64,000 nucleotides of DNA, from positions 3,658,001 through 3,722,000 of the forward strand of contig OZ234493.1 of NCBI GenBank assembly GCA_965153455.1, given 5' to 3'. The notes under the pieces are model-generated. The model was not told the DNA's origin, did no database searches, and worked only from the letters and a program-made list of their open reading frames with translations. A program made the translations under genes and the position numbers. Positions 2,564-55,620 of the stretch are shown piece by piece (within the stretch, counting starts at the first letter, position 1; every line of letters starts with the position of its first letter). This DNA is from Sphagnum compactum. Lineage: Eukaryota.

Positions 2564-4010
2564 CACTACTAGGAAATGCGTCCTAGTTCACTATGGGTTT
2601 CACTAAGATTTTGAGTGAATTTGAACAATTTTACCTAGTGAAATTGTTTAACCCCCTAATGAACAGGGACCAGTTGCTCCGGACAATGACTTGTTTCACT
2701 AGTACCTAGTGAAACAAGGTTATTTTCAAGTGAAATACAAATTTACCAAACCATTCACTTGCTAGTTAATTAACTAACCAGTATGGAAATTAATTAAATT
2801 TTAATTATCTAATATATAATACTATTGATAATTTCATGATTTTTAAAGCCTATTATTTATTGACACGTGTCACTATCTACGCTAGGTTAAAAACCTAGCC
2901 TAGGTAGGTAAGTAGGCCACGTAATCAACCTAAGCACCTAACCTAAGAATTCGATAGGAAAATATCATGGTTTGCACCCTTAACCTTAGGAATGGGGGCA
3001 AACACCTTTACCATCAAACCACCCCACTTGTTGTGATAATATGTTACATTATATTCTATTTATCAAATACTTCATTTTAAACATTACAAAAATATAAACT
3101 TTGAAAATTCATATCTTATTGAGATTTTGTTCAAATGAAATTATTCGATTTTATTTTTTAAAAATATTCAATAATGTACATAATTACATTTATTTCCTTT
3201 TGAAAGTTTAAAATCATTTGAACAAAAAAAAAGTTGAATATCATTATTCAATAACATTTCAATGACCATTCTTTTGAAAAAAAAAATTTAGTAAATGGAT
3301 TTTTTTTGTTAATATAATAATACTACGTATGTTAAACTACTTTCAATTATTATATGATTATTTTTCATTAATTTAAATTATTTTACCCTACATTATTTAC
3401 GGTTATTTATGGTTATTTTAAATTACTTTTGGTTATTTTTGGCTATTTCACCCTATGTTACTTTTGGTTATTTTAAGTTATTTTTGGTTATTTTAACTTA
3501 TTTCACCTTAAACTATTTTCAGCTATTGTAAGTTTTTTTGTTATTCTATGTTATTTTTGGCTATTGTAGATTATTTCAATTTAAACTACTTGAAGTTATT
3601 ATAAATTACTTTTGGTTATTTTAACTTATTTCACTTTAGACTATTTTCAGCTATTGTAAGTTTTGTTGTCTATTCTATGTTATTTTTTGCTATTGTAAAT
3701 TATTTCAATTTAGATTACTTGTAGCTATTATAAGTTACTTTTGGCTATTGAAAATTATTTCACCTTAAGTTATTTTCATTTATTATAAATTATTTCACCT
3801 TAGATATTATTTTTGGCAATCCTAAGCAATATTAATATATTTGGCTATTGGTTGTTCTTTTATTAGTGCTATTGGTGGTTATTAATGGCTACTGATACCT
3901 ATTCTATTTGTGGCTATTAATGTTTTTAGTGGTTATTCTATTAATAGTTATTGATGGTTATTATATTAATGGCCATTAGTAGTATTCTATTGGTTGCTAT
4001 TCGTGGTTTA
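2564..4010. mobile_element. Truncated non-autonomous CACTA (En/Spm) element, sister copy of 5816-8031
   Basis: Begins CACTACTAGGAAATGCGTCCTAGTTCACTATGGG, as does the copy at 5816, and aligns with it for about 550 bp and again from TTGGCAATCCTAAGC (~3813). No right TIR found; right boundary approximate. Confidence 0.75.
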
Positions 4011-5815: not shown

Positions 5816-8031
5816 CACTACTAGGAAATGCGTCCTAGTTCACTATGGGTTTCACTAGATTTTTGAGTGAAATTGTTTAACCCCCTAGTGAACGGGGACT
5901 AGTTGCTACGGACAATGACTTGTTTCACTAATAACTAGTGAAATAAGGTTATTCTCTAGTGAAATACAAATTTACCAAACCATTCACTTGCTAGTTAATT
6001 AACTAACCAGTATGGAAAATAATTAAATTTTAATTATTTAATATATAATACTATTGATAATTTCATGATTTTTAAAGCCTATTATTTATTGACACGTGTC
6101 ACTACTTACGTTAGGTTAAAAACCTAGCCTATGTAGGTAGGTAGGCCACGTAATCAACCTAGGCACCTAACCTAGGAATTCGATAGGAGAATATTCGGTC
6201 AACATACCATGTTGACCACACACAACACCACCCATGAGGTTTGATCCCTTGACCTTTGGAATGGGGGCAACACCTTTACCATCAAACCACCCCACTTGTT
6301 ATGATTATATGTTACATTACATTTTATTTATTAAATACTTCATTTTGAACATTACAAAAATATAAACTTTGAAAATTGGCAATCCTAAGCAATTATAATA
6401 TATGGCTATTGGTTATTTTTTTATTAGTGCTATTGGTGGTTATTAATGGCTATTGGTACCTATTCTATTTGTGGCTATTAATGTTTTTTAGTGGTTATTC
6501 TATTAATAGTTATTGGTGATTATTCTATTAGTGGCCATTAGTAGTTATTCTATTGGTAGTTATTCTATTAATGGCTATTGGTGGCTATTCTATTAATGGC
6601 TACTGGTGGCTATTCTATTAATAGCTATTCGTGATTAATATATTAATGGCTATTGGTGGTTATTCTATTAATGGCTATTGGTGGCTATTTTATTAATGAT
6701 TATTCGTGATTAATTTATTGATGGATATTGGTGCCTACTCTATTAATGGTTATTGGTGGCTAATATATTAGTGACTATTTATGATTAATCTATTAGTGGC
6801 TATTGGTGGCTAATATATTAATGGCTATTGGTGGCTATTCTATTAATGGCTACTGGTGGTTATTCTATTAATGGCTATTGGTGGCTATTCTATTAATAGC
6901 TATTTGTGATTAATGTATTAATGGCTATTGTGGTTATTTTATTAATGGCTATTGGTGGGTATTTTATTAATGGCTATTCATTATTAATTTATTAATGGAT
7001 ATTGGTGGCTATTCTATTAATGGCTATTGGTTGCTAATCTATTAATGGTTATTTGTGATTAATCTATTAATGGTTATTGGTGACTATTCTATTAATGGCT
7101 ATTGGTGGCTATTCTATTAATGGTTATTCGTGATTAATCTATTAATGGCTATTGGTGGATATTCTATTAATGGCTATTGGTGGATATTCTATTAATGGCT
7201 ATTGGTGGCTATTTTATTAATGGCTATTGGTGGTTATTTTATTGGTGGTTACTGACGGCTATTTTATTATGGTTATTATTGGTTATTGTATTATAAGTAT
7301 TGTTGGTTATTATATATTATATTACAACTATTGGTGATTATTGTATTATAAATTATTGTTTGATATTCTACGTTATAATATCATAAGCTATTGGTAGTTA
7401 TTATATTGTAGGGTATTTAAAATTATTTTTCATAGGTTATTATTTTCTATTTTAAGTTATTTTTACCTTAGGCCATTATATTCTGTTTTAGATTATTTTA
7501 AAGTTATTATGCTTAGGATAAAATCATTTATAATAACATTAAGTAGAATGACCTTGAATAATTTAAAGTATAACTTGAAATAACATACATTAATTTAAAA
7601 TAAATAACCTAAGGTATAGCCTAAAGTTAGTTGAATAATTTAATTTTAAATAATTTAAAAGCTTATAATAAACTAGTTAAGATACTTTAAGGTAAAATAA
7701 CATATAATAATTTAGGGTACAATAATTTATAATAGACTATAATAACATAAAATATAAGTTATAATAACTAAAGTAGCTTAAAATAATATAGGGTATATCA
7801 TAAAATAACATAGATATAATATTTTAAAAAACATAGAAATAAACCTATTTGCTATAGTAAATTGTAATAGTGAATTATGTTAACTAGAAATGAAACATGA
7901 TGTCTACATAGTGATATTATAATGAAATAACTTTCATTAGGTGAAATCAGTAAAATGCAATGAAGTTATTTCACTTTTAAGGTCCCATAGTGATTTAAGC
8001 TAATAAACTACACCCCACTTTGGTAGTAGTG
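5816..8031. mobile_element. Non-autonomous CACTA element with both termini
   Basis: Left end CACTACTA (5816), right end TAGTAGTG (8031). Flanking 3-mers ATA/ATG (TSD with 1 mismatch). Removing the element restores a unit of the flanking tandem array. No coding capacity. Confidence 0.85.
6540..7260. repeat. 25-bp minisatellite inside the CACTA element
   Basis: Many degenerate copies of TATTCTATTAATGGCTATTGGTGGC. Confidence 0.85.
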
Positions 8032-13955: not shown

Positions 13956-16900
13956 CTATTCTATGCCTATCTCCTTCTTGCACTTCTTGAATTGGCCTGG
14001 TGCCAGTGCCTTGGTCAGGATGTCCGCCTTCATGTCCTCCGTTTTGCAGAAGACGAAGTTGACTTCCTTGCGTGCCACACGTTCCCTCGCAAAGTGGTGG
14101 ATCACATCAATGTGCTTCGACCTTTGAGAAGCAATAGGATGTTTCAGCAGTTGAATTGCTCCTTGGTTGTCGCAGTAGATTTGAACATGTCCCAGGTCGA
14201 GCCCCAGATTCGCCCCCAGCTTTCGAAACCACAGCGCTTCTTTCACTGCCTGCCCCGCGCTTAAAACCTCTGCTTCGACCGTTGACACGGCCACCGTTGG
14301 CTGCAATCGGGTTGACCAGCTCACCGCTCCCCCAAACATCAGGAAGACATACCCTGTTGTGGACCTTCTCGAATCCAGGTCTCCTGCGTAGTCCGCATCG
14401 CAGTAGCCCACAAGAGTCTCACTGCTCCCCCCAAAGGTTAGGCCGTAGTCTGCAGTCCCCACGAGATAGCGCACTACTCCAAGCGCGGCTTCCCAGTGTG
14501 CTACTGTTGGTGCTGCCATGTAGCGCGCCAACGCCCCCACAATATCAGGGCGCGTGCACACGCTCAGGTAAAGCAGACTTCCCACGCACTCGCTGTAAGG
14601 GAATCTCACCATGTCCAGGGGCTCCCCCTCCTTTCTGAGTTTCTCCCCCGCTGCCTGTGGCACTGAGCGCGCGCGTGCATCTGCCAGTCCATACCGGCTG
14701 ATCAGTTCCCCCGTCAGCTTTTTTTGGGTTAGCTTCAGGCTCCGTGCCTCTCGATCACGTGAAAGCTCCATTCCCAGAAAGTAGGTGGCAGGCCCCAGAT
14801 CCCACACGATAAACTTGGCTGTCAGATGCGCTTTCACCTTTGCTACTCGCTCTTCTCCTTGGGCCGCCACTAGAATGTCATCGACCCAGACAAGCAGCCA
14901 AACTGTCTTACCGTCCAATGTGCCTTGGAAGAGTGCCGCGTCCGCAGACGATGCCACAAACTCAAGGTCCTCCAAGACCTTCTTAAGGCACTGATGCCAT
15001 GCCCGAGGCGCCTGCCGCAGTTCGTAGAGAGCCTTCAGCAGACGACACACTGTATTCGGCCCTCCTTGCTCATACCCCTGCGGTTGCTGCATATAAATCT
15101 CTTCCTCTAACTCTCCGTTGAGGAAGGCCGTTTTCACATCAAGCTGGTGCAGCTCCAGGTCTTGCTGCGCTACAATCGCCAGCAGTGCTTTCAAAGTTGT
15201 GTGCTTGCTCACCAGGGCGTACACCTCCTCGAAATCGACCCCTTGCTTCTGCAGGAACTCCTTTGCCACCAAACGGGACTTGTACCGTTCAACGTTTCTT
15301 TGTGCGTTCCGCTTGACTTTGTAAACCCACTTCATAAGGATTGGTTTTACCCCTTCCGGCCTTTCCACCAGCTCCCAGGTGTCGTTCTCTAAGAGCGAGC
15401 GCATCTCTTCGTCCATGCTTTTCTGCCAAAGCTCACTCTCCTCCCCCGAAACAGCTTCCTGGTATGTTTGCGGCTCATGATGCTCCCCCGATCTCCTTGG
15501 GTTGCTCCCCTCAATTGCAAGGTTTGCCCGATACCTTGCAGGTGTCCTCCTTTCACAAGCAGGGTTTCTTCGCAGCTCTTGTTCCTCACCATCCTCCTCG
15601 TCCTTTAAGTCGATCTAGAGAGGGAGTTTTTGGCTTGCTGCTGCTCCCCGTGTAAGGACTCCTGACGGGCCACTGCTTTCCTCTCTCCCAGTGCCAGGCT
15701 TCCCCGTAGGGATATCTCCTGCACCCATCTGAGTAGGAGGGCTCACATGGCTAAGGTCACGAGCACCCTCCTCCTCCTTCTTCGAGCCAGAGCTCAGCTC
15801 AATGGTCTCGAAGGCAGGCTTTTCGTTGACGATGACATCACGAGACACCAAGATCCGCCCATCTCTTTCCCGCAGCACCCTGTAGGCTTTGCAGTCCGGC
15901 TCATACCCCACAAACACCCCTCTCTCACTGACTGATTGCATCTTCTTCCTGTTTTCCTTGGGGATGTGCATGTATGCGCGTGCCCCAAACACACGCATGT
16001 GATTCACGTCCGGCTTCTCCCCAAAGAACTTCTCCTAGGGTGTCTTACCGTGCACTCTTGAGGGCAGCCGGTTGCGGGTATAGTTGGCGGTCACCATGGC
16101 CTCTGCCCACAGCTCTTCTCCAAGCCCCGAGTCTTCTAGCATTGCCCTCCCCTTTTCTTGCAGGTCTCTATTCAACCGCTCTGCTGATCCGTTCTGTTCA
16201 AGCGAGTATCCAGCTGTCTTTCTGTGCGTGATACCTCTCTTGCTCAGAAGGGTGGTCATCTCTTCGTTGACATACTCACCCCCTTTGTCCGTTTGCACTG
16301 CTTTGACTTTCTTCCCAGTCTGCAGCTCCAGGCGCGCTAGTACCCCTTCTGTGACGGCTGTAACGTTGCTCTTCTTCTTCAAAGGTTGCACCACAGACAA
16401 CTTGCTGTAATCGTCCAAGAAGGTTGCTAGGTATCTGCTCCCCCCCTTTGACGCCTTTGGCATAGGTCCACACACGTCCATGTGCACCAGCTGAAGCGGC
16501 TCTGTGCTTTCTTCTGACACAGACTCCTTTGGAAAGGACTCACGAGTCTGTTTCCCCAGGATACATGGCTCGCACACCAAGGTTTTCTTTTCTCTAAACG
16601 CTTTTCCGCTCACTCGGACAACGGAGACTAGCTCCTCTTCAGCCATCTTTGCCAGGTTTTCATACCCCTCGTGCCCAAGTCTTCTATGCCACAGCTCCGG
16701 ACTCTCAGCTTCTCTCACAAGCAAGCACGAGTCTCTCCAAGACAACCCCGGCTGGCAGATTGCAAACAGGCCCCCTTTCTGCTCCGCTCGCAGCACGACC
16801 TCATTTCTCATGAACACTTGGCACACTCCCCGCTTAAAGACAAACTCCGCTCCAAGCTCAGTTGCCTTGCTCACAGAAAAGAGGTTCTCTGCAACTCCTG

Positions 16901-17951
16901 GGACAAACATCACCTCACGGAGAGTGTTGACCCGCTCACCAACTGGTGTTAGACACCGCAGCTCCACCGTGCCAACTCCTGTCGCCTTGAGCACCCCTTT
17001 GTTGCCAAACTTGATCTCCCGCTCTCCATCCTTAAGCGGCTCCAGGGTTTTGAACAGGCTCTTATCCCCAGTCATGTGCTGGCTTGCCCCCGAGTCCAAA
17101 AACCACTGTCTAGGATCTGCTTCTTCCGCCGCAGTGAAGGCAACCCCCTGGTTGCTTTTAGACTTTCCCCTCTTAGGGCAGTCCCTCTTCATGTGGTCCG
17201 GGCTTCCGCAAGTGAAGCACCCCTTCTTGCTCCTTGACTTTCCAGACCCCTCTGACCCCTGAGAACCCTTGCGGCACTCCCTCTCAAAGTGCCCAAGCTC
17301 ACCACACTTGTGGCACCTCATGGATGCTTTCTTGCCCTTCCCACTGCCTCCTTTCCAAGCAGCGTAGGCTACCGCAGTCGTTGACTCCTTCTCATCCAGG
17401 TCAAGCGAGCTTGCCTTCAACCTCTCAGTCTGCTCATGGATTTGCGGCTGTGGGAGCATCTCGTCTACTGACTTGACTACGTCTGCTGCCACTAAAACAG
17501 TTACCAACGTGTCAAACTCCTTTGACAAACCGGTAATCACACTCATAGCGAGGTCCTCTGGCTTTACCTCAGCTCCTGCAGCAAGCAGCTCCCTCTCCAA
17601 GTCCTTTGCTCTGCCGACGTACTTTGCCACAGGCTCTCTTGACTCTTGTTTGAGGGTCATCAGCTCCCTTTTCAGCTGCAGTTTCCGGGCCGTGGTCTTG
17701 CCCCTGAACACCCTCTCTAACTCATCCCATGCTTGTTCGGCGTTCCTTGCAGCTACAACACGTCCCAGGTATTGCTCCGTAACATTCAGTCCAATCAGAG
17801 CCTTTGCTTCTGCAGACCTATCAGCGTCTGCTTCAGGTTCTGTCACCCCTTTCCACAGCTTCTTGTGGACAAGGAACATTTCCATCCTCTGGGACCACAC
17901 CGCATAGTTTTCGCCATTTAGCGGCTCTATGCTAATCTTAACGTCTGCCAT
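13956..17951 (-). pseudogene. Copia gag-pol polyprotein in one reading frame with two premature TAG stops
   Basis: Two CCHC knuckles (CHKCGELGHFEREC, CFTCGSPDHMKRDC), protease WFLDSGASQHM, integrase WHRRLGH..CEPC / HMDVCG / TDKGGEY / NGSAER, RT HQLDVKTAFLNG..WVDD, RNase H YCDADY..YCDNQ..ADILTK. The three ORFs are in frame across stops at 16035-16037 and 15615-15617 (linker translated by hand). Confidence 0.95.
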
Positions 17952-18122
17952 CTTTCCTGAACCAAGCTTCTTCCAACGTCAGGGCTGAGCACACTCTTGT
18001 GCTTAGACTTTGTTTCCGGTGATTATCCAGGCGAGCGCCTTCACCACAAAACCTCTACCAACCCTAGCGTCAACTTGCTCACTATGGCTGACACAATTAC
18101 CACCCCTAAAGCTCCTAGCGCC

Positions 18123-26165: not shown

Positions 26166-28898
26166 TCGTAGCGGCAAGGGAATTCACCCCCAAGCGCCGC
26201 GAATAATTAATTTCGAAAGTTTTGAGGTTTCGCTAAGGCAATTTCGAATTTAACAACATTTCGCGTCCGCCTTCCCAGACATAATTTCCATTTTCTCCCG
26301 TTGTGAAACAGTTTCTAGGTATGCACCGCGTTGTGGCTGGTAGGTACCGTACTGAATGCCATCCGATAATGAAAAGGCTCCGATAGACGGTGGAGATGAT
26401 GCCATTTTGGAGGGAAGCCCCTTCAAAGAGTGACTCAGTCCAAGGAACCAGTGACACAGGCTCTAAGTCTGAACATTGGGCCACTCTGGTCACTCCAGAG
26501 TTCAACTTCAAGCTCCTTTGGCATGGCTTGACCTCAGAGTCAGAGCAGAAGAGCTGTTGCAAGAAGAGGCATTAGGGCCGGGCGTTATGGCGTCAGGGGT
26601 GAGAATTGCCACGATCACCCGATTCTTTTCTGTGGATAAGAGGTCTGAAGAAGAAAAGGCTGCTGATAGAAAGTCTGCTCTAGCAAAGTGGCATGATGAG
26701 GAAAATGCTAGATTGGCTCGCAAGAAGGAGGCTGAAGCAGCTGCTGAAGCGAAAAGGCTTGCATCCAAAAGGCTTGTTGGCAGACCAAAGAAAGTCAGGC
26801 AGGCTCAGGCAGTTCTTGTAGGACAGGACGGAGAGGAAGGGAATCTAGAAGATGGGGGTGAGGAACCACCTGCCAAGAAGAAGAGGGGTCCCTACACCAA
26901 TTGGTTTGTGTCGGATCTTTGGAACTTCATCTTCGCTACAGTCAAGAAGCATCCTAGAAACCTCTATGATGCTCTCTTTTCCCTCCAACACAACAAAAAG
27001 CCAGGTTGATTAGGTAGCCCTTTTGACAAGCTAACCGTCCAAACGCTGAAAGGCTGGTTTGAGAAAAATGAGGAGGGGGTCTTTGTCCTGAAACGCAAGG
27101 TCGCAGACTGCATTGCACTGCAGAATGCGAGGAAAGCTAGCCACAAGCCTAGACCGACGGGGATTTTCACAGAGTTCCCTGAAACATTTGAGCTGGTCTG
27201 CAAGACGCTCAAGGGTGTGAGGGATGTTGGGCAGCCATTGGACGGTGGGATCATCCAGGGAATCATGCAGGGGTGCATCCAGCAGTCTGCCCCTGAGATG
27301 TTTCAGCGGACGGTGACGGGCAAGCGCGGGGAAGATGTCAAGTTCTCGGTGTCAAAGACCTTTGGGAAGGCCTTTGTCCGGAAGCACTTGGGGTGGACGT
27401 GGAGGCGGGTCACCATAGCAGCGAACAAGCTCCCGGAAGACTGGGAGAAGCAAGGTGATGAGACGGCGTACAGGGTTGTTGCCCTTTGCAAGTTGCACAA
27501 CATCCCCCCTGAGCTGGTTGTCAATTCTGATCAGACTGCCATCTACGTGCGGCCCGCAGCAGAGCAGACTTATGAAACCAAGGGAGTGAAGGCTGTTCGG
27601 AGTTTAGGAAAGGACGAGAAGAGGCAAATAACGGGGATGGTCAGCTCAGCTTCCAGTGGTAACATGCTTCCATTGCAGCTCATTTTCCAGGGGAAGACCA
27701 CAGCGGTGGTACTAAATCATGTTGAAGCCAGGGAAGCTGTCAGGAAAGGGTGGGGTTTGACCAACTCGGAGAATCACTGGTCAAATCAAACCACCATGAA
27801 GCGGTTTGTGGAGAAGGTCTTGAACCCGTGGCGCGTCGAGAAGTGCAAGGAGCTGGGGTTGGATTCTTCCAAGCAGAAGATGGTGTGGCTCATAGATTGC
27901 TGGAAAGTTCACACGTCGGAGGAGTTCCGAAACTGGCTTAAGGAAAACCACCCCCTCGTCCACTATCTTTATGTGGCTGCAAACTGCACAAGCAAGCTCC
28001 AGCCAGCGGATGTAGTGTTGCAGAGACCTTTCAAGCATGGTTTTCGTAAGCAGTTTGAGAAGTGGCAGAGTGAGTTGGTTGCTTCGTATCTTGCTGAAGG
28101 GGTAAGACCTGAGGATGTAGAGCTGCAAGTAGGAATCAAGAAGCTGCGCGAGTTACTTATTGGCTGGCTCCTATCGTCATGGGGCGAGCTTTGCGAGCAA
28201 GTGGAGATGATCCAGAAAGGCTGGGCCTTGTGCAGACTGGGCAACATTCTCATTCCCTGCTTCCAAGATGCAGCCATGGGGCAATGCCTGTAGAGGGGTC
28301 TGCTTGCGGAGCTGGAAAACCCTGGGGATGAACCTGAAGTCACCGAGGACGAGCTAGAGAGTGGGGCTTTTAGGAGCGCAGGCATCGAGGAAATTCTGTT
28401 GGTGGCATCGGTGCAGGATGTGATGAGTGCTTGCTTGGAGGAGGAGCACACGCTCGAAGTTTTCAAATCTTTGAGCCGGCAGGATGATGAGTTAGTGGCA
28501 GAGTTGGAAGAGCTAGAAAACCTGGCAGACCTTGATGACGTAGATGATATTTTCTTCTGACTTGCTATAAGCTGTACCTATTGATTCGAGTTACATGCTC
28601 AAGTCAATTACACTTCCTGATTGCTTGCATAATATGTGCTGTGTGATTCAATTAAGGTGATCAATATATCCAGGATGCTTCGGCTAGCAATGCATCGACT
28701 GATGATACAGCCATGGATCATGTCATTGTCATGATCTACATACCTACTTCCTTTCTAACACTATGGTCAATTTCTCCTGCGTCACAACAGATTTAATTTT
28801 TTCATTTCTCCATTTCTCCCTGCAGGCCCAATTTAGTTTCAAGTTTTTCTCCTTGGCCTGAAATAATTATTAAAAGATGAATTCCCTTGCCGCTACGG
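26166..28898 (+). mobile_element. Complete pogo-like (Tc1/mariner-related) DNA transposon
   Basis: 21-bp TIRs: TCGTAGCGGCAAGGGAATTCA (26166-26186) and TGAATTCCCTTGCCGCTACGG (28878-28898), with 1 terminal mismatch. TA TSD on both sides. Encloses a transposase gene. Confidence 0.93.
26587..28560 (+). pseudogene. DDE_1/pogo-like transposase (DD37D), intronless, two premature stops
   Basis: One frame from ATG 26587 to TGA 28560 with stops at 27007-27009 (TGA) and 28291-28293 (TAG). Motifs VNSDQT, PLQLIFQGKT, NHWSN, WLIDCWKVH, CTSKLQPADV; 37 residues between the 2nd and 3rd Asp; basic GRPKK and PAKKKR segments; acidic tail. Confidence 0.9.
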
Positions 28899-40455: not shown

Positions 40456-40676
40456 TTACCTACCTATCGTCCTCTCATCACATTAATTGAAAAGATGCAT
40501 GTGGTCAATGTTGCATCTAGTTCCAGATGTTACCTACCTATGCTCCTCTCATCACATTAATTGGAAAGATCCATTTGGTCAATGTTGCATCTAGTTCCAG
40601 ATGTTACCTACCTATCCTGCTCTCATCACATTAATTGAAAAGATCCATGTGTCAATGTTGCGTCTAGTTCCAGATG
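40456..40676. repeat. ~74-bp tandem repeat, 3 copies
   Basis: TTACCTACCTAT..CTCTCATCACATTAATTG.AAAGAT.CAT.TG.TCAATGTTGC.TCTAGTTCCAGATG occurs three times. Confidence 0.9.
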
Positions 40677-40715
40677 TACGGAGTTCAACTTGCACTGAGA
40701 CAGAGGACAACAGCT

Positions 40716-41085
40716 GGACAACAGCTGGGGTACCCATCACCAGAAGCAAGTCACCTTGCACTGACACAAAGAAATTAGTTCTGTACAGACTGGAGCACCT
40801 GGACAACAGCTGAGGCACCCATCACCAGAAGCAAGTCACCTTGCACTGACACAAAGAAATTAGTTCAGTCCAGACTGCAGCATCTGGACAACAGCTGAGG
40901 TACCCATCACCAGAAGCACGTCACCTTGCACTGACAAAGAAATTAGTTCAGTACAGATTGCTCCACCTGGTCAACAGCTGAGGTACCGTCACCAGAAGCA
41001 AGTCACCTTGCACTCAGACAAAGAAATTAGTTTAGTACAGACTCCAGCACCTTGACAAAAGCTGAGGTACCGATCACTAGAAACA
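40716..41085. repeat. ~85-bp tandem repeat, about 4.4 copies
   Basis: GGACAACAGCTGAGGTACCCATCACCAGAAGCAAGTCACCTTGCACTGACACAAAGAAATTAGTT.. at 40716, 40801, 40886, ~40969 and ~41052. Confidence 0.9.
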
Positions 41086-42184
41086 AGAAGTACCATACCT
41101 TCCATTGTAAACTACGAGATGAACATTCAACTGCTGCTCCTAGGTACCCATAGAGCTATTTTCTAATCTGACATGTTTAGGGCTCAAACAGACACTAGGA
41201 GAGCAGCACTGCTCTCACTCTGGAACACTCTTCATTTTTTCCACCCCACCCAAAATACTTATGCTGCCCTTATTGTCACCCCGGAATGAATCCTCCGAAC
41301 CTGAGAAGGGCCCTACCTTTGTCATGGCCTTCAGTGGAGCCGAATAGCCAATGGGTCCACTTGTATCACATCCATATATTAAATGCACAGCTAAGGTAGT
41401 GGCTGCATTGTCATCTTTCCTTTCACCTGAGACCAGCGTATGAAGGCAGATGTTTAACACAGAAATTGGAGTCAATACATATGAGTACGTCTCAATCCTT
41501 GAATCTGAAATACTAGTTGCATTTCCAATTAGGTAATGAGACAAGCTGCAGGGATGGGGCACTCGAGAAGATTTCAACTACATTGTTAGCCAAACTGCCA
41601 CTCCCCCTGGCATTTACCACATCTGTCCATTCCTTTGACAACACGAACAGAATTTTTTTTGAAGGATAGGATGAGGCCTTGTTCTCGTGTCCAGCCAAAA
41701 AAACAAGGGCGATGAGGGCAGCTTGTAGTCTCATCACTGTTGCAGCGACGCAAGTTACTAATGATCAGGCCCCTGAATTTCTGTTTTCTCATTCCTCACT
41801 TCAAATGCAGCGAACAGAAGTGGCGAACAGGCATATGTACGAGAAGGTAAACGATCGCTAGCGCATTCGCGTCTGAGGTGGGGCCCGCTGAGCGGATCGC
41901 TAGGGTTACCGCTTGCCTTCTAAGAGAAAAATAGCTGGGGCTACTGTGTCCACAATCGGAACGCGCGGTTCTGCCCTGTTGCTTTACCCGCTCTTTCGCC
42001 TCTTCTTTTTGCTGCACCAGTAGTCTGCCGGCCCTGCCTTGCGGCGTCGGAGCTGAAGGTGGCTTTTGCATTTCTACCGATTGTTCAGCAACATCTCCCA
42101 TCCTTCTTCTTCTGCTGTTGCACCAAGGTCAGATCGCGCGACCGCCTTGCAAGCTGACGAAGAGGCGAACCACGGCCACTACCC

Positions 42185-42870
42185 GCCACTGTCTGATGTT
42201 TGCGCTCCCATACTGCATCGATCCAGCTAACACAGTGCACTGCATCTTCTTTTTCTGCATCGAGATCTGGCGCCCGACCCACAGCTGACGAAGAGACGAA
42301 GCGCAAGTGCGACCCCACCGCCTTCTGGTGTGTGCGCTACCAAGCTATACCGATGCAGGTAGGCTGCATCTTTTTTCTCATCGAGATTTTCCCGCCCTGC
42401 AAGTTGACGAGTAGACTAACCATGAAGGCAGACCCCGTCGCCTTCTGGTGTCTTTACTACCGAGCTAGACGGATCCAGCTACGTTGCACCTTCTTTTTCC
42501 GCATCGAGATCAGTTCCGTCCCGTAAGCTGACAAAGAGACGAACCACGACCGCAGAACTCACCGCCTTCTGGTGTGCGCTACCAAGCTACTCCGATCCGG
42601 CGAGGTTGCACCTTTCTTTTCCGCGTCGAGATCGGGCGGCTGCCCCTGCAAACTGAAGAAGAGATGAACCACGGCCGCAGATCCCATCGCCTTCTGGTGT
42701 GTGCGCTACCAATCTAGACTACACCTGGTTTTTCCGCGTCGAGATTGGGCGCCCGCCCCAGCCCCTGCAAGCAGACGAAGACACGAACCAGGACCGCAGA
42801 CCCCACCGCCTTCTGGTGTGCGCGCTACCAAGCTACAACGATCCAGCCCGCACACCGCGCTGCACCTGAC
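42185..42870. repeat. GC-rich ~122-bp tandem array (5-6 units) upstream of the NLR gene
   Basis: GCCTTCTGGTGT core at 42320, 42440, 42564, 42689 and 42808 (spacing 119-125), with shared TCGAGAT and GAAGAGACGAA motifs. Confidence 0.85.
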
Positions 42871-43084
42871 GGACCCCGCATCGCACCACGTTTTTTGCCC
42901 TTGCACCCGCGCATATACGTAGTGAAGGAAGGCGCAGCCTGTGGGCGACGTGCCATCTCTCATCAGTTCCTATTTCTACCTTACGAATCTAATCTCTGCT
43001 GCACGGAGTTGTGCAGCAGTTTCACAACGCGTAATCAGGCCAACTCTTCCGCAATCTCGTAACTCGTACTCATACCCACGAGTG

Positions 43085-46000
43085 ATGGGGATTTCTTTCC
43101 GCCAGATCGTTTTGGTGCATCGATTCTTGAGCAAAACAACACTCCCATCAACAATCCTAACCGTTGCATCGACACTCATAATCGTTTTTTGCATCCACAG
43201 TTTTTTGTTCCGAAAGTGGCGAGGCCGATCAGTTGGTTGTGAGGGTGAAATTGGGGTTTTCGATGTGCAGATTCGTCCCGTGACACAAGTATGGCCACCC
43301 GACGACTACAAGGGTCCCATTCATTTTGACGTCGTGTTCTTCCACGGCTTCCAATTCGGGCAGGATGCACCCAACATGTGGAAAACCACTTGGTCGACAC
43401 GAAATCGCCCAGAAACATGTTGGCCTCAAGAATGGTTGGGACCACAATTGGGCAACAATGTCAGAATCTTGCTCCTCTCCTACGATGCATATGCCACCAA
43501 ATCCAAGTCGCATGATTTTGGAAATACCGAAGATGTTTCACATATTGCAAAGAATTTGGTGCCAAGCGTGGTGACCAGGTCTGATTAAGAACCTATATTT
43601 GTCTGCTGCAATATTTCCAACTGTTTGTTATAAAGATTGCGGGGATTTAGGATTTAACACACACACACAAATTAATTATATCCTAAACTTACAAACTAGG
43701 TACTAGAAATATGGGTGCTTCAAATATGTTGTAATTTTTTGAAGCATGCCTTCGTGGAAGACAAAGGGGCGAGGAGTTTAGATCCAAACTGTAAATTCCA
43801 TTCTAGATTGTTCTTTTTAAGGTGTTTATGTGCAAGCTGCAACTGTTGTGGACTGAACATACAAGAGGCATGTACTCGAACTTGTGGGATGTACCAGATT
43901 CGCAATGAGCACAGATCTTAGCATATTGATTGTTGAAAGAATGCCACACATGGCTATTATGTGATTATTTAATGTTGTGCTTGTTTGATCTTGATCTACA
44001 GTGCCGAGTGGAAGTTGGGCCAAGAACACCCCTTTGTGCTTGTAGGGCACAGCTTTGGTGGTATTGTCATCGAGAGCTTGGTCATGGAGATTCATAAGAT
44101 ATCTCAACAACAACATTCTAACAATCTAGGGAAAACAGATGTTGAAAAGGCAAATCTTTTTTTTAAAAATATGGCAGGGGTGGCCTTTTATGCTGTACCA
44201 CATACTGGGTCACGAGAGTTAATTGAATATATTTGTAGACAATGTGAAATCAATTTGCACTCCAAGCAATTGGCCAAAGTCAAAGCAATCATCTTGGAAA
44301 ATATTGATCCCTCCATATCCAAGGCAGCAGATTTATCAAATGATTTTTTTAATACACTTGCAAGTTGCACAAACGTTCATGGTTTCATCGAAACCAAACC
44401 TATTGATGATAATGTGGTAAGTGATGAGCATTGTCAATTGTGTAATGAATGGTTAGTATTCAAAGACTATTGTATAGAAACTTAATAGGATTGGAATATA
44501 TTTGGTTTTGCAGGGTATGATTGTGGAATATGGACCAGCCCAAATTCCAGGACACAAATGTTATAGAGTTGAAGGTTGTGATCATTTCAGTGTTTGCAAG
44601 CCACCTGATCAAAACCATCCAAGTTATAATATGCTTTTGCAATTTTTGGAGGGCTGTCGAAAGGTAATAATTGTTGTCCAACTTACAATTATTGGAGATT
44701 AATATTAGTTGGAATTGAATATGTTGATTTGCCAATGTCCATGTTGATTAGCAATTTGTCAAATTGATTAATGTTTATGCTTTCAATGTTCTAGCATAGA
44801 AGAAGTTGCAAGGTTCATGTAGCATGTTGGAATGCACCAAATGGATAAGGCAAATTAACAATTTCAAATGAGACCAAGCCAATTTGAAAGATCTTTTGCA
44901 ATGTGCATATTTTTTATCAAAGCACATTGTACATATACTGAATTTAAGGAATTTTAAACCTTTTCACCCAAAGGCCAACCTTGGAGCAACCTTCATATGT
45001 TTATATTTCTAGACTCCTCTTGGGGTTTCATGGATCTCACTTATTGTTTTTGTCAATGAAAGTTGATTGTAGCTATAAAAAATTGTGAGCTTAGAAAAGA
45101 TAGATTGTAGCTTGTAGTCTTAATGGGCAAAGTTATGGCAATGAAAGTTTATGCTTTTCTTTTGTATTTATCAATATACAAGTTATGGGTTGCAAGGATT
45201 AAATGAGTTTGTGTTGATGTAGGATTTTCTATTGAAGCATGCAAGCCTACCAACATTGCCAAAACTTGTGATTGGGCTCGATGAAGCTATTGCCAATGTT
45301 AAGGGGAAAATTGTGGACAACCATATGCTAGCTGTGGTTGGTATGGGTGGGATTGGGAAGACAACTTTGGTGAAGAAACTTTACCATCAAATACATGCTG
45401 ATTTTAAGAAATCAAGTTTCTTGGAAAATGTCAAAGAAAGTGACATTGTGAAAGTTAAAAAGAAAATCATCATGGATTTATGTGGCTTGAAATTAAAGGA
45501 TCCTAAAACTTTTCTTAGATATTTTGAAGAATGTTGGACAGAAATGAAAGTACTTGTGGTCATTGATGATGTTAAAGAGATTCAAATGATTGAGCTATTT
45601 GGCGAAGACATAGATGGCATCAAAAGAAGTGAAAATGGCAGTAGAGTAATTATGACAGGGCGAAATTGGAAAGATTTTGAAAATGTTACACCTAAAGATG
45701 GGAAGTTTGAAATGGATGGACTCAATGAAAACCAAGCAATGGAGCTTTTTTCTTGGAAAGCTTTTAGACAGTCAACACCTCCCCATGATTTTGCATCCAT
45801 CACAAGTGAGGTGGTTGATGCATGTCAAGGGCTACCATTATCCCTTGAGGTCACGAGCTCTTGGCTCTCTACCAAAAGAAATCTACAAGAATGGAAAGAA
45901 GGTTTATCACGGTTGAAAAATGTAAAACCTTTTGATGGGGGTCGTATTGAAAATGATCAGCTTTGGGGTCGACTAAGGATTTGTTATTCTGACCTAGCCT

Positions 46001-49000
46001 ATGAAGAACAAGAAATGTTTTTAGATATTGCTTGTTTTTTTTCAGAATACAACTCAAAATTTGAAAGGGGGGTCACAATTCAAAAAGCATTACAAATATG
46101 GAAGGTCCCGTCACAATATTCATGGATGAGTAGTTTGCAAAATTTGAAGGATAGATCACTTGTCAAGGTGAATGACATAGGTAATTTGGTGATGCATGAT
46201 CAATTACGTGATATGGGTCGACAAATTGTAAAAGAAGCTTCTAGTTATGACCGTGGTAATCAAAGTAGGATTTGGGACAAGGAAGAAGCAAGAATGGTCC
46301 TTCTCAATGAGACGGTAATTACTTCATCCTTAAATGTTCATCAATCTTTCAATTGTACACATTGGTGATTCAATCAACATTGTGTGAAGTGTTGGATGTA
46401 CATATGAAAATCTAACTCAATTCATGGTACTGCATGTAAGTTAATGATGCATTCTCTAAACTAATATGGTATGGTGCTTTGTTGGTTTTTAGGTCACTCC
46501 AAATATTCAAGCCATTTGGTTGCCCGAAAATCTAGAACTTCCACGACAAGTAACAGCATCAAAATTTCACCAAATGACAAAATTGCGAATGCTCATCATG
46601 GAAGGAGCTAATGAAACATTCATACAATCTTGTCTCGGACAACATTTTAGCCAATTGAAATGGCTCAACATAAGTTCTGACATGACACAACTTCCTGAAT
46701 CCATGCAACACCTTGTTGCTTTAACTATTTTGCAATTGCAAAATTGTCAGAACCTATTATACATACCAAAATTTCTCATAAACATGACTTTGTTAATGCA
46801 TTTGGACTTTTACAACTGTTCCAAACTGACTTCACTACCACCAACAATTGGTGACTTCAAGCATTTGACCGAACTAAAGTTGAGTAAATGTGAAAATCTT
46901 AAGGAGGTTCCTCAAACCATTGGAAGCGTCTCTTCATTATCAATATTGGACTTATCTTATTGCAAGTCCATTGAATCACTACCATCAACAATTGGTGATT
47001 TGAAGCATTTGACCGAACTAAAGTTGAATGGATGTGAAAATCTTAAAGAGGTTCCTCAAACCATTGGAAACATCTCTTCATTATCAATATTGGACTTATC
47101 TTATTGCAAGTCCATTGAATCACTACCAACAACAATTGGTGACTTAAACCATTTGACCACATTATGGTTGAAAGGATGTGAAAATCTTAAGGAGGTTCCT
47201 CAAACCATTGGAAGCGTCTCTTCATTATCAATATTGGACTTATCTTATTGCGAGTCCATTGAATCACTACCAACAACAATTGGTGACTTGAAGCATTTGA
47301 CCAGATTATGGTTGGAAGGATGTGAAAATCTTAAGGAGGTTCCTCAAACCATTGGAAGCGTATCTTCATTATCAATATTGGACTTATCTGATTGCAAGTC
47401 CATTGAATCACTACCAACAACAATTGGTGACTTGAAGCATTTGACCACATTATGGTTGAAAGGATGTGAAAATCTTAAGGAGATTCCTCAAACCATTGGA
47501 AGTGTCTCTTCATTATCAATATTGGACTTATCTTATTGCAAGTCCATTGAATCACTACCAACAACAATTGGTGACTTGAAGCATTTGACTCAGTTATTAT
47601 TGGGACGATGTGAAAATCTTAAGGAGGTTCCTCAAACCATTGGAAGCATCTTTTCATTATCAATATTGCACTTATCTTATTGCAAGTCCATTGAATCACT
47701 ACCATCAACAATTGATGACTTGAAACATTTGACCGAACTAAAGTTGAATGCATGTGAAAATCTTAAGGAGGTTCCTCAAACCATTGGAAGCGTCTCTTCA
47801 TTATCAATATTGGACTTATCTTATTGCAAGTCCATTGAATCACTACCAACAACAATTGGTGACTTGAAGCATTTGACTGAACTAAAGTTGAACGAATGTG
47901 AAAATCTTAAGGAGGTTCCTCAAACTATTGGAAGCATTTCTTCATTATCAATATTGCACTTATCTTATTGCAAGTCCATTGAATCACTACCAACAACAAT
48001 TGGTGACTTGAAGCATTTGACCACATTATGGTTAGAAGGATGTGAAAATCTTAAGGAGGTTCCTCAAACCATTGGAAGCATCTCTTCATTATCAATATTG
48101 GACTTATCTGATTGCAAGTCCATTGAATCACTACCAACAACAATTGGTCACTTGAAGCATTTGACTCAGTTATTATTGGGACAATGTGAAAATCTTAAGG
48201 AGGTTCCTCAAACCATTGGAAGCATCTCTTCATTATCAATATTGGACTTATCTTATTGCAAGTCCATTGAATCACTACCAACAACAATTGGTGACTTGAA
48301 GCATTTGACCGAACTAAAGTTGAATGAATGTGAAAATCTTAAGCAGGTTCCTCAAACCATTGGAAGCATCTCTTCATTATCAATATTGCACTTATATGAT
48401 TGCAAGTCCATTGAATCACTACCAACAACAATTGGTGACTTAAACCATTTGACCGAACTAAAGTTGAATGGATGTGAAAATCTTAAGGAGGTTCTTCAAA
48501 CCATTCGAAACATCTCCTCATTATTAATGTTGGATTTATCATATTCCAAGTCCATTGAATCACTACCAACAACAATTGGTGACTTGAAGCATTTAACTGA
48601 ACTAAATATGGAAGGATGTCAAAATCTTAAGGAGGTTCCTCAAACCATTGGAAGCATCTCTTCATTATCAATATTGGACTTATCTTATTGCAAGTCCATT
48701 GAATCACTACCAACAACAATTGGTCACTTGAAGCATTTGACCACATTATGGTTGGAAGGATGTGAAAATCTTAAGGAGGTTCCTCAAACCATTGGAAGCG
48801 TCTCTTCATTATCAATATTGCACTTATCTGATTGCAAGTCCATTGAATCACTACCAACAACAATTGGTGACTTGAAGCATTTGACCACATTATGGTTGGA
48901 AGGATGTGAAAATCTTAAGGAGGTTCCTCAAACCATTGGAAGCGTATCTTCATTATCAATATTGGACTTATCTGATTGCAAGTCCATTGAATCACTACCA

Positions 49001-49459
49001 TCAACAATTGGTGACTTGAAACATTTGACCGAACTAAAGTTGAATGGATGTGAAAATCTTAAAGAGGTTCCTCAAACCATTGGAAGCGTCTCTTCATTAT
49101 CAATATTGGACTTATCTGATTGCAAGTCCATTGAATCACTACCATCAACGATTGGTGACTTGAAACATTTGACCGAACTAAAGTTGAATGGATGTGAAAA
49201 TCTTAAGGAGGTTCCTCAAACCATTGGAAGCGTCTCTTCATTATCAATTTTGGACTTATCTGATTGCAAGTCCATTGAATCACTACCAACAACAATTAGT
49301 GACTTGAAACGTTTGACCGAACTAAAGTTGAATGGATGTGAAAATCTTAAGGAGGTTCCTCAAACCATTGTAGTAGCTCTTAATTATCAATATTGGACTT
49401 ATTTAATTGCAAGTCCATTGAATCACTACCAACAACAATTGGTAACTAGAAGCATTTGA
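43085..49459 (+). CDS. Hydrolase-NBS-LRR (HNL) immune receptor with putative N-terminal membrane anchor; 5 exons: 43085-43578, 44002-44416, 44514-44663, 45223-46314, 46493-49459 (~1700 aa)
   Basis: All four introns are GT-AG and the exons join in frame. Hydrolase motifs DVVFFHG, CWPQEWL, RILLLSYD, LVGHSFGG, FYAVPHTGS, DHFSVCKP. NB-ARC motifs GMGGIGKTT, VLVVIDDV, GSRVIMTGR, GLPLSL, FLDIACFF, MHDQLRDMG. Then ~35 repeat LRRs. The frame ends after a 1-nt deletion near 49371, so the gene may be truncated or non-functional. Confidence 0.88.
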
Positions 49460-51391
49460 CGCAACTAAAGTTGAGTGAATGTGAAAATCTTAAGGAGGTT
49501 CCTCAAACCATTAGAAGCATCTCTTCATTATCAATATTGGACTTATCTTATTGCAAGTACATTGCATCACTACCAACAACAATTGATGACTTGAAGCATT
49601 TGACTCAGTTATTATTGGGAAGATGTGAAAATCTTGAAGAGGTTCCTCAAACCATTGGAAGCATCTCTTCATTATCAATATTGGACTTATTTAATTGCAA
49701 GTCGATTGAATCATTACCAACAACAATTGGTGACTTGAAGCATTTGACTAAATTATTATTGAGAGGATGTGAAAATCTTAAGCAAGTTCCTCAAACCATT
49801 GGAAACATCTCTTCATTATCAATATTGGACTTATTTAATTACAAATCCATTGAATCACTACCAACAACAATTAGTGACTTGAAGCATTTGACTAAACTAA
49901 AGTTGAATGGATGTGAAAATCTTAAGGAAGTTCCTCAAACCATTGGAAGCATCTCTTCATTATCAATATTAAACCTATCTTATTGCAAGTCCATTGAATC
50001 ACTACCAACAACAATTGGTGACTTGAAGCATTTGACCAAACTAAAGGTGAGTAGATGTGAAAATCTTAAAGAAGTTCCTCAAACCATTGAAAGCATCTCT
50101 TCATTATCAGCATTGAACTTATCTTATTGCAAGGCCATTGAATCACTACCAACAATAATTGGTGACTTCAAGCATTTGACCGAACTAAAGTTGAGTAAAT
50201 GTGAAAATCTTAAGGAGGTTTTTCAAACCATTGGAAGCATCTCTTCATTATCAATATTGGACTTATCTTATTACAAGTCTATTGAATCACTACCAATAAC
50301 AATTGGTGACTTGAAGCATTTGACCACATTATGGTTGGAAGGATGTGAAAATCTTAAGGAGGTTCCTCAAACCATTGGAAGCATCTCTTCATTATCAATA
50401 TTGCACTTATTTTATTGCAAATCCATTGAATCACTACTAACAACAATTGGTGACTTGAAACATTTGACCACGTTATGGTTGGAAGGATGTGAAAATCTTA
50501 AGGAGGTTCCTCAAACCATTAGAAGCATCTCTTCATTATCAATATTGGACTTATCTTATTGCAAGTCCATTGAATCAGTACCAACAACAATTGGTGACTT
50601 GAAGCATTTGACCAAATTATGGTTGGAAAGATGTGAAAATCTTAAGGAGGCTCCTCAAACCATTGGAAACGTCTCTTCATTATCAATATTGGACTTATCT
50701 TATTGCAAGTCCATTGAATCACTACCAACAACAATTGGTGACTTGAAACATTTGACTCAGTTATTATTGGGAGGATGTGAAAATCTTAAGGAGGTTTTTG
50801 AAACCATTGGAAACTTTTCCTCATTATTAATATTGGACATATTTGATTGGAACTACATTGAATCACTACCAACAATAATTGGTGACCTGAAGCATTTAAC
50901 CTAATTATTAGTGCAAGAATGTGAAAATCTTAATTAAGAAGGTTCTTCAAACCATTGGAAACATTTCTTCATTATCAATATTGGACTTATCTTATTGCAA
51001 GTCCATGGAATCACTACCAACAACAATTGGTGACTTGAAGCATTAGACCAAATTATGGTTGGGAGGATGTGAAAAATTCGAAGGAACTCCTTCAAACCAT
51101 TGGAAGCATCTCTTCATTATCAATATTGGACTTATTTATTGCAAGTTCATTGAATCACTACCAACAATAATTGGTGATTTGAACCATTTGAGTAAGTTAT
51201 TATTGGGAGGATGTGAAAATCTTAAGGAACCTCAAACCATTGGAAACATCTACTCATTATCGATATTGGATTTATCTTATTGCAAGTCCATTGAATCAGT
51301 ACCAACAACAATTGGTGATTTGAAACATTTGATAGAACTATTGTTGGCAGGATTTGGAAACTTGAAGGGGCTTCTTTGATCCATTGGAAGT
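46868..51391 (+). repeat. 144-bp coding tandem repeat (48 aa = two 24-aa LRRs), about 31.5 units
   Basis: Unit 1 starts at 46868 and unit 18 at exactly 49316 (17 x 144). Consensus TxLxLxxCENLKEVPQTIGSISSL-SILDLSYCKSIESLPTTIGDLKHL. Confidence 0.97.
49371..51391 (+). pseudogene. Out-of-frame distal LRR units of the NLR
   Basis: 1-nt deletion at ~49371, TAG 49447-49449 in the restored frame, open run 49456-50904, TAA 50902-50904, 4-nt insertion at ~50931 and further indels after 51070. Confidence 0.85.
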
Positions 51392-54529: not shown

Positions 54530-55620
54530 TGTAGGGTTAGGGTTAGGGTTTTTCATCGGACCGTTTATAGTGCGCCACGTGGTAGCACAAAAATCGTTAG
54601 ATTTAGTTGCATATGCAACTGCTGACCCATGTTTTACGGTTAGGATTAGGGTTTTTTCATCGGACCGTTTACAGTGCACCACGTGCCAGCACAACAACCG
54701 TTAGATTTAGTTGCATATGCAACTGCTGACCCATGTTTTAGGGTTAGGGTTGGGGTTTTTCATCGGACCGTTTATAGTGCGCCACGTGGTAGCACAACAA
54801 CCGTTAGATTTAGTTGCATACGCAACTGCTAACCCATGTTTTAGGAATAGGGTTAGGGTTAGGGTTTTTTCATCGGACCATTTACAGTGCGCCACGTGCC
54901 AGCACAACAACCGTTAGATTTAGTTGCATATGCAACTGCTGACCCATGTTTTAAGGTTACGGTTAGGGTTGGGGTTTTTTCATCAGACCGTTTACAGTGC
55001 GCCACGTGCCAGCACAACAACCGTTAGATTTAGTTGCGTATGCAATTGCTGTCCCATGTTTTAGGGTTAGGGTTAGGATTGGGGTTTTTCATCGGACCGT
55101 TTATAGTGCGCTACGTGGCAGCACAACAACCGTTAGATTTAGTTGCATATGCAACTGCTGACCCATGTTTTAGGATTAGGGTTAGGCACATGAATTTTTC
55201 ATCAGATCGTTTATAGTGCGCCACGTGGCAGCACAACAACCGTTAGATTTAGTTGCATATGCAACTGCTAACCCATGTTTTAGGAATAGGGTTAGGGTTA
55301 GGGTTTTTTCATCGGACCGTTTACAGTGCGCCACGTGGCAGCATAACAACCGTTAGATTTAGTTGCATATGCAACTGCTGACCCATGTTTTAGGGTTAGG
55401 GTTTTTCACCAGACCGGTTGTAGTGCGCCACGTGGCAGTACAACAACCGTTAGATTTAGTTGCATAGGCAACTGGTGAGTTCCAGATGCAACTGCTGAGT
55501 TGCATATGCAACTGCTGACCTATGTTTTAGGGTTACGTTTAGGGTTAGGGTTTTCCATCATATAGGTTAAATATGTTTTAGGGTTAGGGTTTAGGGTTAG
55601 GATTAGGGTTTAGGGTTATG
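54530..55620. repeat. ~105-110-bp subterminal tandem array (about 9 units) with TTAGGG/TTTAGGG tracts
   Basis: CATCGGACCG-like cores at ~54554, 54658, 54761, 54871, 54981, 55090, 55200, 55310 and 55407. Units contain GCCACGTG, AGTTGCATATGCAACT and TAGGGTTAGGGTT variants. Confidence 0.92.

Follow-up and report, generated by a model that had tools for sequence, protein, structure and literature searches.

A near-identical leucine-rich repeat array with recurring strand cassettes in a predicted hydrolase-NLR gene of the moss Sphagnum compactum

Results

We analysed a 64,000-nucleotide stretch of the Sphagnum compactum genome (GenBank assembly GCA_965153455.1, contig OZ234493.1, positions 3,658,001 to 3,722,000 of the forward strand), hereafter the window; all coordinates are window positions. 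On its + strand, at 43085-49459, lies a predicted gene of the nucleotide-binding leucine-rich repeat receptor (NLR) type. Its leucine-rich repeats (LRRs) are mostly encoded by a tandem array of near-identical 144-bp units, along which a short block of strand residues recurs in three forms on an otherwise nearly constant scaffold. All exons and array features described below are on the + strand.

Spliced across four GT-AG introns of 423, 97, 559 and 178 nt, the five-exon model gives a single frame of 1705 codons whose only stop is at its end. Exon 1 (43085-43578), within an open frame at 42926-43588, encodes the N-terminal part of an alpha/beta-hydrolase-like domain with an HG motif; a tblastn match to residues 71-155 of the Riccia hydrolase-NLR (Hyd-NLR) P0040 lies at 43325-43573, and a GT donor follows 43578. 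The start codon is uncertain: it was taken as the first ATG in that frame. Exon 2 (44002-44416; open frame 43973-44485) continues the hydrolase-like domain with a GHSFGG nucleophile-elbow motif, matches P0040 residues 156-217 at 44015-44209, and is bounded by an AG acceptor and a GTAAGT donor. The end of this domain and a linker are encoded by exon 3 (44514-44663), which was placed by its splice sites and by 88% identity to residues 1-49 of the Sphagnum magellanicum protein P0001. Exon 4 (45223-46314; 75% identity to P0001 residues 50-421) encodes an NB-ARC ATPase with the P-loop GMGGIGKTT (Pfam NB-ARC, E 2.2e-27, 96.3 bits against a cut-off of 23.5) and a Roq1-like winged-helix domain (WHD_ROQ1, E 6e-12). 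Exon 5 (46493-49459) ends at the stop codon 49457-49459 and encodes the LRRs. About five irregular N-terminal LRRs (46493-46867) precede the array, with strands at residues 7-10, 33-37, 57-61, 79-83 and 103-107 of an AlphaFold2 model. Many LRR families match the LRR frames in Pfam, among them LRR_14 (E 4.9e-111) and the RPS4B-like LRR_13 (E 2.3e-52).

Taken singly, the hydrolase-exon frames of the window matched 0 Pfam families. The spliced N-terminus aligns with residues 71-357 of P0040 (E 8.9e-24), a protein that carries DUF676 (putative serine esterase) at residues 115-228, and with Ceratodon P0131 (E 9.2e-30). In the predicted product of 1705 residues, which includes 17 complete LRR units, a central NB-ARC domain with a P-loop is followed by C-terminal LRRs, the arrangement by which plant NLRs are recognised. 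The putative alpha/beta-hydrolase (DUF676-like) domain at its N-terminus is the hallmark of the Hyd-NLR/HNL class. We infer that the array region belongs to an intracellular immune-receptor-type gene of hydrolase-NB-ARC-LRR order and forms its C-terminal sensor domain; the gene product would act in immunity and bind a ligand. Directly upstream of the gene, tandem repeats of 74, 85/167 and 119 bp, the last of them GC-rich, occupy 40456-41087 and 42241-42847.

Tandem Repeats Finder reports a single 144-bp array at 46832-51332 (31.3 copies, 89% matches, 0% indels, score 6708) and no second array of this kind in the window. A blastn search with unit 10 agrees, with 32 of 32 matches inside 46832-51331 and no unit elsewhere in the 64 kb. 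One 144-bp unit encodes 48 residues, or two 24-residue LRRs of the type LxxLxLxxCxxLxxLPxxIGxL. Of about 31 units in total, 17 are intact, the next is degenerate, and 13 more follow. Cut in 144-bp steps from 46868, units 1-17 (46868-49315) are free of indels and stops and remain in frame. Their mean pairwise identity is 85.6% for protein (816 residues) and 91.4% for DNA; without the first 21 nt of each unit, nucleotide identity is 94.9%, and the scaffold reaches 92% protein identity within the gene.

A first-pass annotation of the window, made by a model from the letters alone, had described 17 complete, indel-free units with a constant scaffold and shuffled strand motifs. The stepping confirms the unit count, and on translation all 18 first-LRR motifs that it quoted, as well as the five second-LRR variants DLSY, DLSD, HLSY, HLSD and HLYD, are correct. 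It had also called the units near-identical even at synonymous sites. That holds roughly, at the DNA identities just given, but the synonymous diversity of codons 8-48 among units 1-17 is 0.076, which is above zero. The array does not end at 49370, as had been proposed: it extends to about 51332 with 13 further units, and 49370 is the point at which unit 18 breaks down.

Variation among the units is strongly localised. Unit positions 2, 4, 6 and 7 have entropies of 1.6-2.0 bits among the 17 units, and no other position exceeds 1.0 bit. Both xLxLxx strands together have eight x positions, out of 48 in the unit, and these hold 518 of the 939 pairwise amino-acid differences, a number that 0 of 100,000 random eight-position sets matched. 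The four x positions of the first strand alone hold 364 of the 939, matched by 1 of 100,000 random sets. The claim of the first-pass annotation that the variation sits in the xLxLxx strand, and is not spread uniformly along the unit, is thereby upheld by the entropy peaks and the permutations.

To place these positions on the fold, we modelled residues 1-461 of the LRR exon with AlphaFold2 from the single sequence (mean predicted local distance difference test score 81.7, predicted template modelling score 0.81). The model is a regular solenoid with a 24-residue period. To all 14 LRRs in units 1-7, DSSP assigns strands that begin at unit position 2 or 26 and span unit positions 2-4/6 and 26-28. 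Positions 2 and 4 (26 and 28) therefore lie within strands, and positions 6 and 7 (30 and 31) at or just past their ends. The x residues of xLxLxx are known to face the solvent on the concave side of LRR proteins. In the model, then, the hypervariable positions are few and would sit on the predicted binding face.

The variable block, nucleotides 3-20 of the unit, occurs as three cassette haplotypes, E-K, x-W and Q-L; their order along units 1-17 (46868-49315) is EEWWWQEEWQEEEWWEE. The cassettes, which differ also at linked synonymous sites, namely CTA versus TTA at Leu3 and, in part, ACC versus ACT at Thr1, are old haplotypes and not the product of fresh mutation. Within the three haplotypes there are further amino-acid variants at positions 2, 6 and 7, and the second strand shows the two-state variants D/H and Y/D. 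Synonymous divergence between cassette types is 0.455 in codons 1-7 versus 0.069 in codons 8-48, about 6.6-fold lower in the scaffold.

Cassette type is uncoupled from the remainder of the unit. Pairs of units differ in the scaffold at 5.94 sites between cassette types versus 6.77 within types, and the observed excess is reached in 4523 of 5000 permutations of the type labels. Units farther apart along the array are no more different in scaffold (Spearman rho 0.066, reached by 1291 of 5000 permutations). The first-pass annotation had suggested a recombination test; run here as a four-gamete test, it finds all four combinations in 46 of 91 pairs of informative two-state sites. These data support the uncoupling of cassette type from both scaffold and second-LRR variants, and so agree with the earlier description of interspersed cassettes that pair with different second-LRR variants. 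The divergence contrast, the permutations and the four-gamete pairs together point to a scaffold homogenised by exchange between units, in which the cassette block would retain distinct, much older and re-assorted variants. Combinatorial rewriting by unequal crossing-over and gene conversion, also proposed in the annotation, is supported by the four-gamete pairs as a process on the evolutionary time scale.

The same array could in principle have arisen by recent, neutral, satellite-like amplification of a few LRRs that had already diverged, so that the x positions differ by ancestry with neither selection nor ongoing exchange. The three haplotypes with their linked synonymous differences do resemble three ancestral repeat types, and the ratio of nonsynonymous to synonymous differences (pN/pS) over the seven-codon cassette block is 0.88. 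However, such an origin predicts scaffolds that track cassette type or array position, which is not what the pairwise distances show, and it is at odds with the four-gamete pairs, with the low synonymous divergence of the scaffold, and with the occurrence of the same pattern with other cassettes in four Sphagnum relatives (see below). We consider it unlikely.

By codon class, pN/pS is 1.89 at the four first-strand x codons, 0.76 at the four second-strand x codons and 0.34 elsewhere. Within cassette types, a hand count with the codon table gives 11 nonsynonymous changes and 1 synonymous change at the four positions; the neutral expectation is about 4.8:1, and the excess is not significant.

The array grades from intact to broken in the 5' to 3' direction. 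Unit 18 (49316-49458) carries three lesions in 80 nt: a 1-bp deletion near 49370-49376 and, in the LRR frame, the stops TAA at 49381-49383 and TAG at 49447-49449. The running frame ends at the stop 49457-49459 after 29 out-of-frame residues. In units 19-28 (49459-50898) the LRR frame is open again (open reading frame 49450-50904), cut off from the upstream frame and more diverged: scaffold differences per unit are 6.4 versus 3.76 in units 1-17, and the 18 structural core positions are changed in 11 of 180 cases versus 4 of 306. The balance of nonsynonymous to synonymous scaffold changes from the consensus is alike in the two groups (49:15 in units 19-28 versus 46:18 in units 1-17, Fisher p 0.69). 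Units 29-31 and a terminal partial unit (50899-51380) contain indels of +4, +1, -1 and -3 as well as stop codons, as seen from alignment to the array consensus and from the list of open reading frames. Units 19-31 thus decay progressively, and in the present haplotype the 13 downstream units are predicted to be an untranslated remnant.

To examine the breakdown point in independent material, we mapped four public runs to a 401-bp test stretch (49240-49640). Every other site in the gene differs from 49366-49463 by more than 10 mismatches, and reads there are therefore specific. DNA run X3 yielded an exact 51-nt contig at 49383-49433, and DNA run X8, from a separate study, three contigs at 49377-49433 with 1-2 differences; none of the listed short-read contigs of X3 and X8 spans the whole test stretch. 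In the poly(A) RNA run X22 (151-nt reads), of which about 12% was used, 52 reads were placed. Their depth over 49366-49463 is 2-4.8, in one orientation only, which in most stranded libraries denotes + strand RNA. At the junction of units 17 and 18 the depth is 7-9, with one fixed difference, 49311 G>A, which changes Arg47 of unit 17 to His and is present in 8/8 RNA reads, 2/2 Hi-C reads and one X8 contig. Two further single-base differences from the assembly occur in 3/3 RNA reads apiece (49433 C>T and 49465 C>T). All three, seen in reads with the same species label, are either allelic differences between individuals or assembly errors. Over 49478-49603, RNA depth rises to about 39-fold, and 35-37 of 38-39 reads bear consensus letters of other units at four places; most reads there therefore come from other units or from paralogues. 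The unit 18 lesion is real, and in these poly(A) reads transcription runs through it unspliced.

One other reading of this stretch was set aside. An 80-nt GT..AG intron at 49370-49449 would restore an in-phase QTI|KHL joint, but 0 X22 reads join 49369 to 49450 against a read-through depth of 2-4.8; the reads are few and the test weak, and rare splicing may occur. Two backward joints in the reads are no rearrangements but reads from neighbouring units placed on a stretch that starts inside unit 17.

The array length and order could also be an artefact of mis-assembly among near-identical repeats, given that short reads are ill suited to assembling 144-bp units that are 91% identical and that no listed contig piece from X3 or X8 covers the test stretch. 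Each unit nevertheless has many private differences and is therefore distinguishable, sequence specific to unit 18 recurs in two DNA runs of two other studies and in RNA, and the frame is perfect across 17 units. An artefact is accordingly very unlikely.

A more serious alternative is that the whole locus is a dead or dying pseudogene, in which the repeat pattern is a fossil of an earlier functional array and diversification has ceased. The lesions of unit 18, the four indels and stops in units 29-31, the more frequent core changes in units 19-28 and the low RNA depth all fit this, as does the fact that four of four Sphagnum relatives also end within their arrays, so that truncation is seemingly frequent, or the gene models imperfect. 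On the other side, the 5' exons, the GT-AG sites of all four introns and units 1-17, 2448 nt in length, are intact, and the resulting frame has 1705 codons with one stop; stranded poly(A) reads fit the unit 17/18 junction with one single-nucleotide difference; and a truncated LRR domain with about 40 repeats could still work. We regard a dead locus as possible but doubtful.

The downstream units also bear on a proposal of the first-pass annotation, which had drawn a parallel to lamprey variable lymphocyte receptors (VLRs) and transcription activator-like effector (TALE) repeats and raised the prospect of somatic change in a clonal haploid plant. Under programmed or somatic diversification, units would be rearranged within the life of the plant, or silent units would serve as donors, in a VLR-like or pseudogene-templated manner. 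The Sphagnum plant is indeed haploid and clonal, and the silent units 19-31 carry the cassettes QLKLSE, KLLLRG, KLKLNG, KLKVSR, KLWLER and QLLLGG, which are absent from units 1-17, beside shared ones. Against this, all units in the 64 kb lie inside the array; no gene for a deaminase or dedicated recombinase was seen there, the nearby enzymes being limited to a DDE_1 transposase-like frame and a copia element that is degenerate; the single-nucleotide differences in reads at units 17-19 are fixed (8/8, 3/3), with no mixture; and the cassette haplotypes are old. We give somatic diversification hardly any credence, and the likeness to VLRs and TALE repeats is architectural only.

The best relatives of the LRR exon are proteins of Sphagnum magellanicum, S. 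jensenii and S. balticum, at 67-79% local identity. The 48-residue unit recurs in four Sphagnum relatives (P0001, P0003, P0004 and P0005). Scaffold identity is 0.82-0.96 between units within genes, versus 0.72-0.88 between the window gene and these four, and identity at the eight x positions within genes is just 0.38-0.75. This comparison of sequences supports concerted evolution as a family-wide feature of Sphagnum genes with 48-residue units.

In all four of these annotated proteins the array breaks off and a short non-LRR tail follows; three of them lack the hydrolase-like head. Either frameshift truncation is common in the Sphagnum family or the gene models of the relatives are incomplete. 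A search among proteins of 1680-4795 residues returned 67 at E <= 1e-60, none of them from Sphagnum, and no full-length annotated orthologue was seen in it.

Beyond Sphagnum, 23 of the 187 retrieved relatives contain a 200-residue stretch that matches itself, when shifted by a fixed distance, with 80% identity or more; a repetitive query favours repetitive proteins, and this fraction is therefore no frequency among plant NLRs. Among angiosperm TIR-NLRs, P0002, P0008, P0121, P0124 and P0132 (Vitis), P0011 (Malus) and P0128/P0129 (Lycium) have LRR blocks of 69-71 residues at 88-95% identity. In the Vitis proteins P0002, P0008 and P0121 the units are of 71 residues (three LRRs) and 92-95% identical, and differ mainly near the LxL strands.

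Elsewhere in the window, 13956-17978 on the - strand encodes a Ty1/copia-type long terminal repeat retrotransposon polyprotein (gag, zinc knuckle, integrase, RVT_2), in three abutting frames (16035-17978, 15615-16034 and 13956-15614) that are interrupted by two in-frame stops. On the + strand, two abutting open frames lie at 26473-28293, the second of which (27010-28293) has a weak match to the DDE_1 endonuclease (E 6.9e-09); a gene or relic derived from a transposase is the probable identity. At 54531-55478 there is a tandem repeat of about 110 bp (8.9 copies, scored also at periods of 219 and 329), with units that open with TTAGGG-like triplets (GGGTTAGGGTTAGGGTT). AT-rich tandem repeats are found at 6475-7315 (25/50 bp, about 30 copies) and 3347-3792 (55/129 bp).

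Discussion

We consider it probable that the window gene carries an LRR array of the high internal conservation (HIC) type in a hydrolase-NLR, shaped by concerted evolution and by re-assortment of cassettes on the binding face. In this model, the units of the array would repeatedly undergo unequal crossing-over and gene conversion with one another, in the germ line of the haploid plant, and so be kept alike. A block of about 20 nt for the exposed first-strand residues would persist as three old cassette haplotypes, and recombination would re-assort these cassettes both along the solenoid and against the D/H and Y/D variants of the second strand. Through such re-assortment the concave, presumably ligand-binding face would change combinatorially over evolutionary time while the fold is kept. 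The HIC architecture of fungal NLR repeats would then be realised with LRRs in a moss gene.

Several points weigh against this interpretation. The number of six-residue cassettes common to the window gene and the four Sphagnum relatives is 0, and exchange between genes is therefore not demonstrated. Diversifying selection at the cassette positions is not established from the one array analysed, and relaxed constraint at exposed positions could lie behind much of the variation pattern. RNA depth is low over the unit 18 lesion, and the truncated copy may be a pseudogene.

The HIC class is best described in fungi, where NLRs carry near-identical WD40, ANK or TPR repeats with few hypervariable, positively selected positions, and where concerted evolution and repeat shuffling have been described (PMC4986451, PMC13449251). 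Dyrka et al. (2014, PMC4986451) define HIC repeats as more than 85% identical over at least 100 residues; the window units, at 85.6% over 816 residues, lie above both values. Like the fungal HNWD, het-e and het-d genes of Podospora, the window gene would join a STAND ATPase to tandem repeats, and the fungal repeats are about 80-100% mutually identical. Both also have few hypervariable surface positions, of which the window units have four main ones, located on the predicted binding face as is expected of HIC NLRs. For the fungal genes, concerted evolution, reshuffling and change in repeat number have been proposed as the source of new specificities. Unlike theirs, the repeats of the moss gene are 48-residue double LRR units and not WD40, ANK or TPR repeats, and they follow a hydrolase-like head. 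Positive selection and length polymorphism are established for the fungal HIC NLRs, whereas the window gene is known from one array. Dyrka et al. report that they found no LRRs in fungal NLRs (PMC4986451), and a 2026 survey that includes LRR proteins places HIC NLRs in plants as well (PMC13449251).

The closest worked plant example is tomato Cf-2/Cf-5, whose LRR region is described as 'highly repetitive' through intragenic recombination (PMC7468133). These Hcr2 proteins are extracellular, membrane-anchored and receptor-like and have no NB-ARC domain, whereas the window gene has an NB-ARC in the same spliced frame, behind a hydrolase-like head. Dixon et al. (1998) reportedly describe allelic variation in LRR copy number at Cf-2/Cf-5, and also alternating two-LRR units with variable solvent-exposed residues. 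The array design itself is thus already known from fungal receptors and from tomato, and the window gene is a plant LRR case of it.

In domain order (hydrolase-like head, NB-ARC, LRR) the predicted protein is identical to bryophyte Hyd-NLRs, which have been reported from bryophytes including Sphagnum (PMC11218826) and correspond to the HNL class of Xue et al. (2012, as cited in PMC4986451); it also shares the homology to Riccia P0040 and Ceratodon P0131 described above. What sets it apart from the described Hyd-NLRs is the tandem array: near-identical LRR units go unmentioned, and 'tandem repeat' and 'internal repeat' have 0 occurrences, in the portion of PMC11218826 covered here. The LRR region of P0040 has no such array and lies outside the best 40 of the 187 proteins by self-identity. 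No article returned by our literature search describes NLRs of Sphagnum or of other bryophytes with near-identical LRR arrays; the search covered article text, and the supplements of PMC11218826 and PMC13449251, which lay outside it, may list the family.

Angiosperm TIR-NLRs (Vitis RPV1-like, Malus, Lycium) resemble the window gene in their near-identical LRR blocks, but their units are of 69-71 or 96 residues and their head is a TIR domain, in contrast to the 48-residue units and hydrolase-like head found here. Lamprey VLRs and TALE repeats share with the array near-identical modules, a small number of specificity positions and surfaces built by combination. The assembly of VLRs is somatic and draws on donor cassettes that flank the gene, and TALE repeats are helical units of 33-35 residues that read DNA bases by a two-residue code. 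The window gene differs from the former in that no donor LRR bank surrounds it in the 64 kb, all 32 unit matches being inside the array, and from the latter in its 48-residue units, each comprising two strand/helix LRRs.

A bolder version would connect the decayed 3' end with the diversity of the intact units. Frameshift-truncated arrays would be normal in this moss family, and the silent units 19-31 would form an archive from which cassettes are copied back into the expressed units by mitotic or meiotic gene conversion during the life of a haploid, clonal and long-lived plant; the binding face would then change heritably from pseudogene templates, in a manner convergent with fungal HIC NLRs. 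We offer this as speculation that is improbable on present evidence.

The usual account of plant NLR diversity rests on gene duplication, point mutation and exchange between paralogues, and near-identical arrays in which few positions are hypervariable are known in detail mainly from fungi. The locus described here adds a very clean case built of LRRs, in the hydrolase-NLR class of an early-diverging land plant, and the contrast of its old cassettes with their homogenised scaffold can be measured. Genes of this kind are easily mis-annotated, as truncated, split or collapsed models. If the pattern holds across Sphagnum genomes, the same diversity-enhancing architecture would have arisen in plants with a different repeat fold, and the Sphagnum family would provide a compact system, with 48-residue units and four main positions, for studying how LRR surfaces gain specificities.

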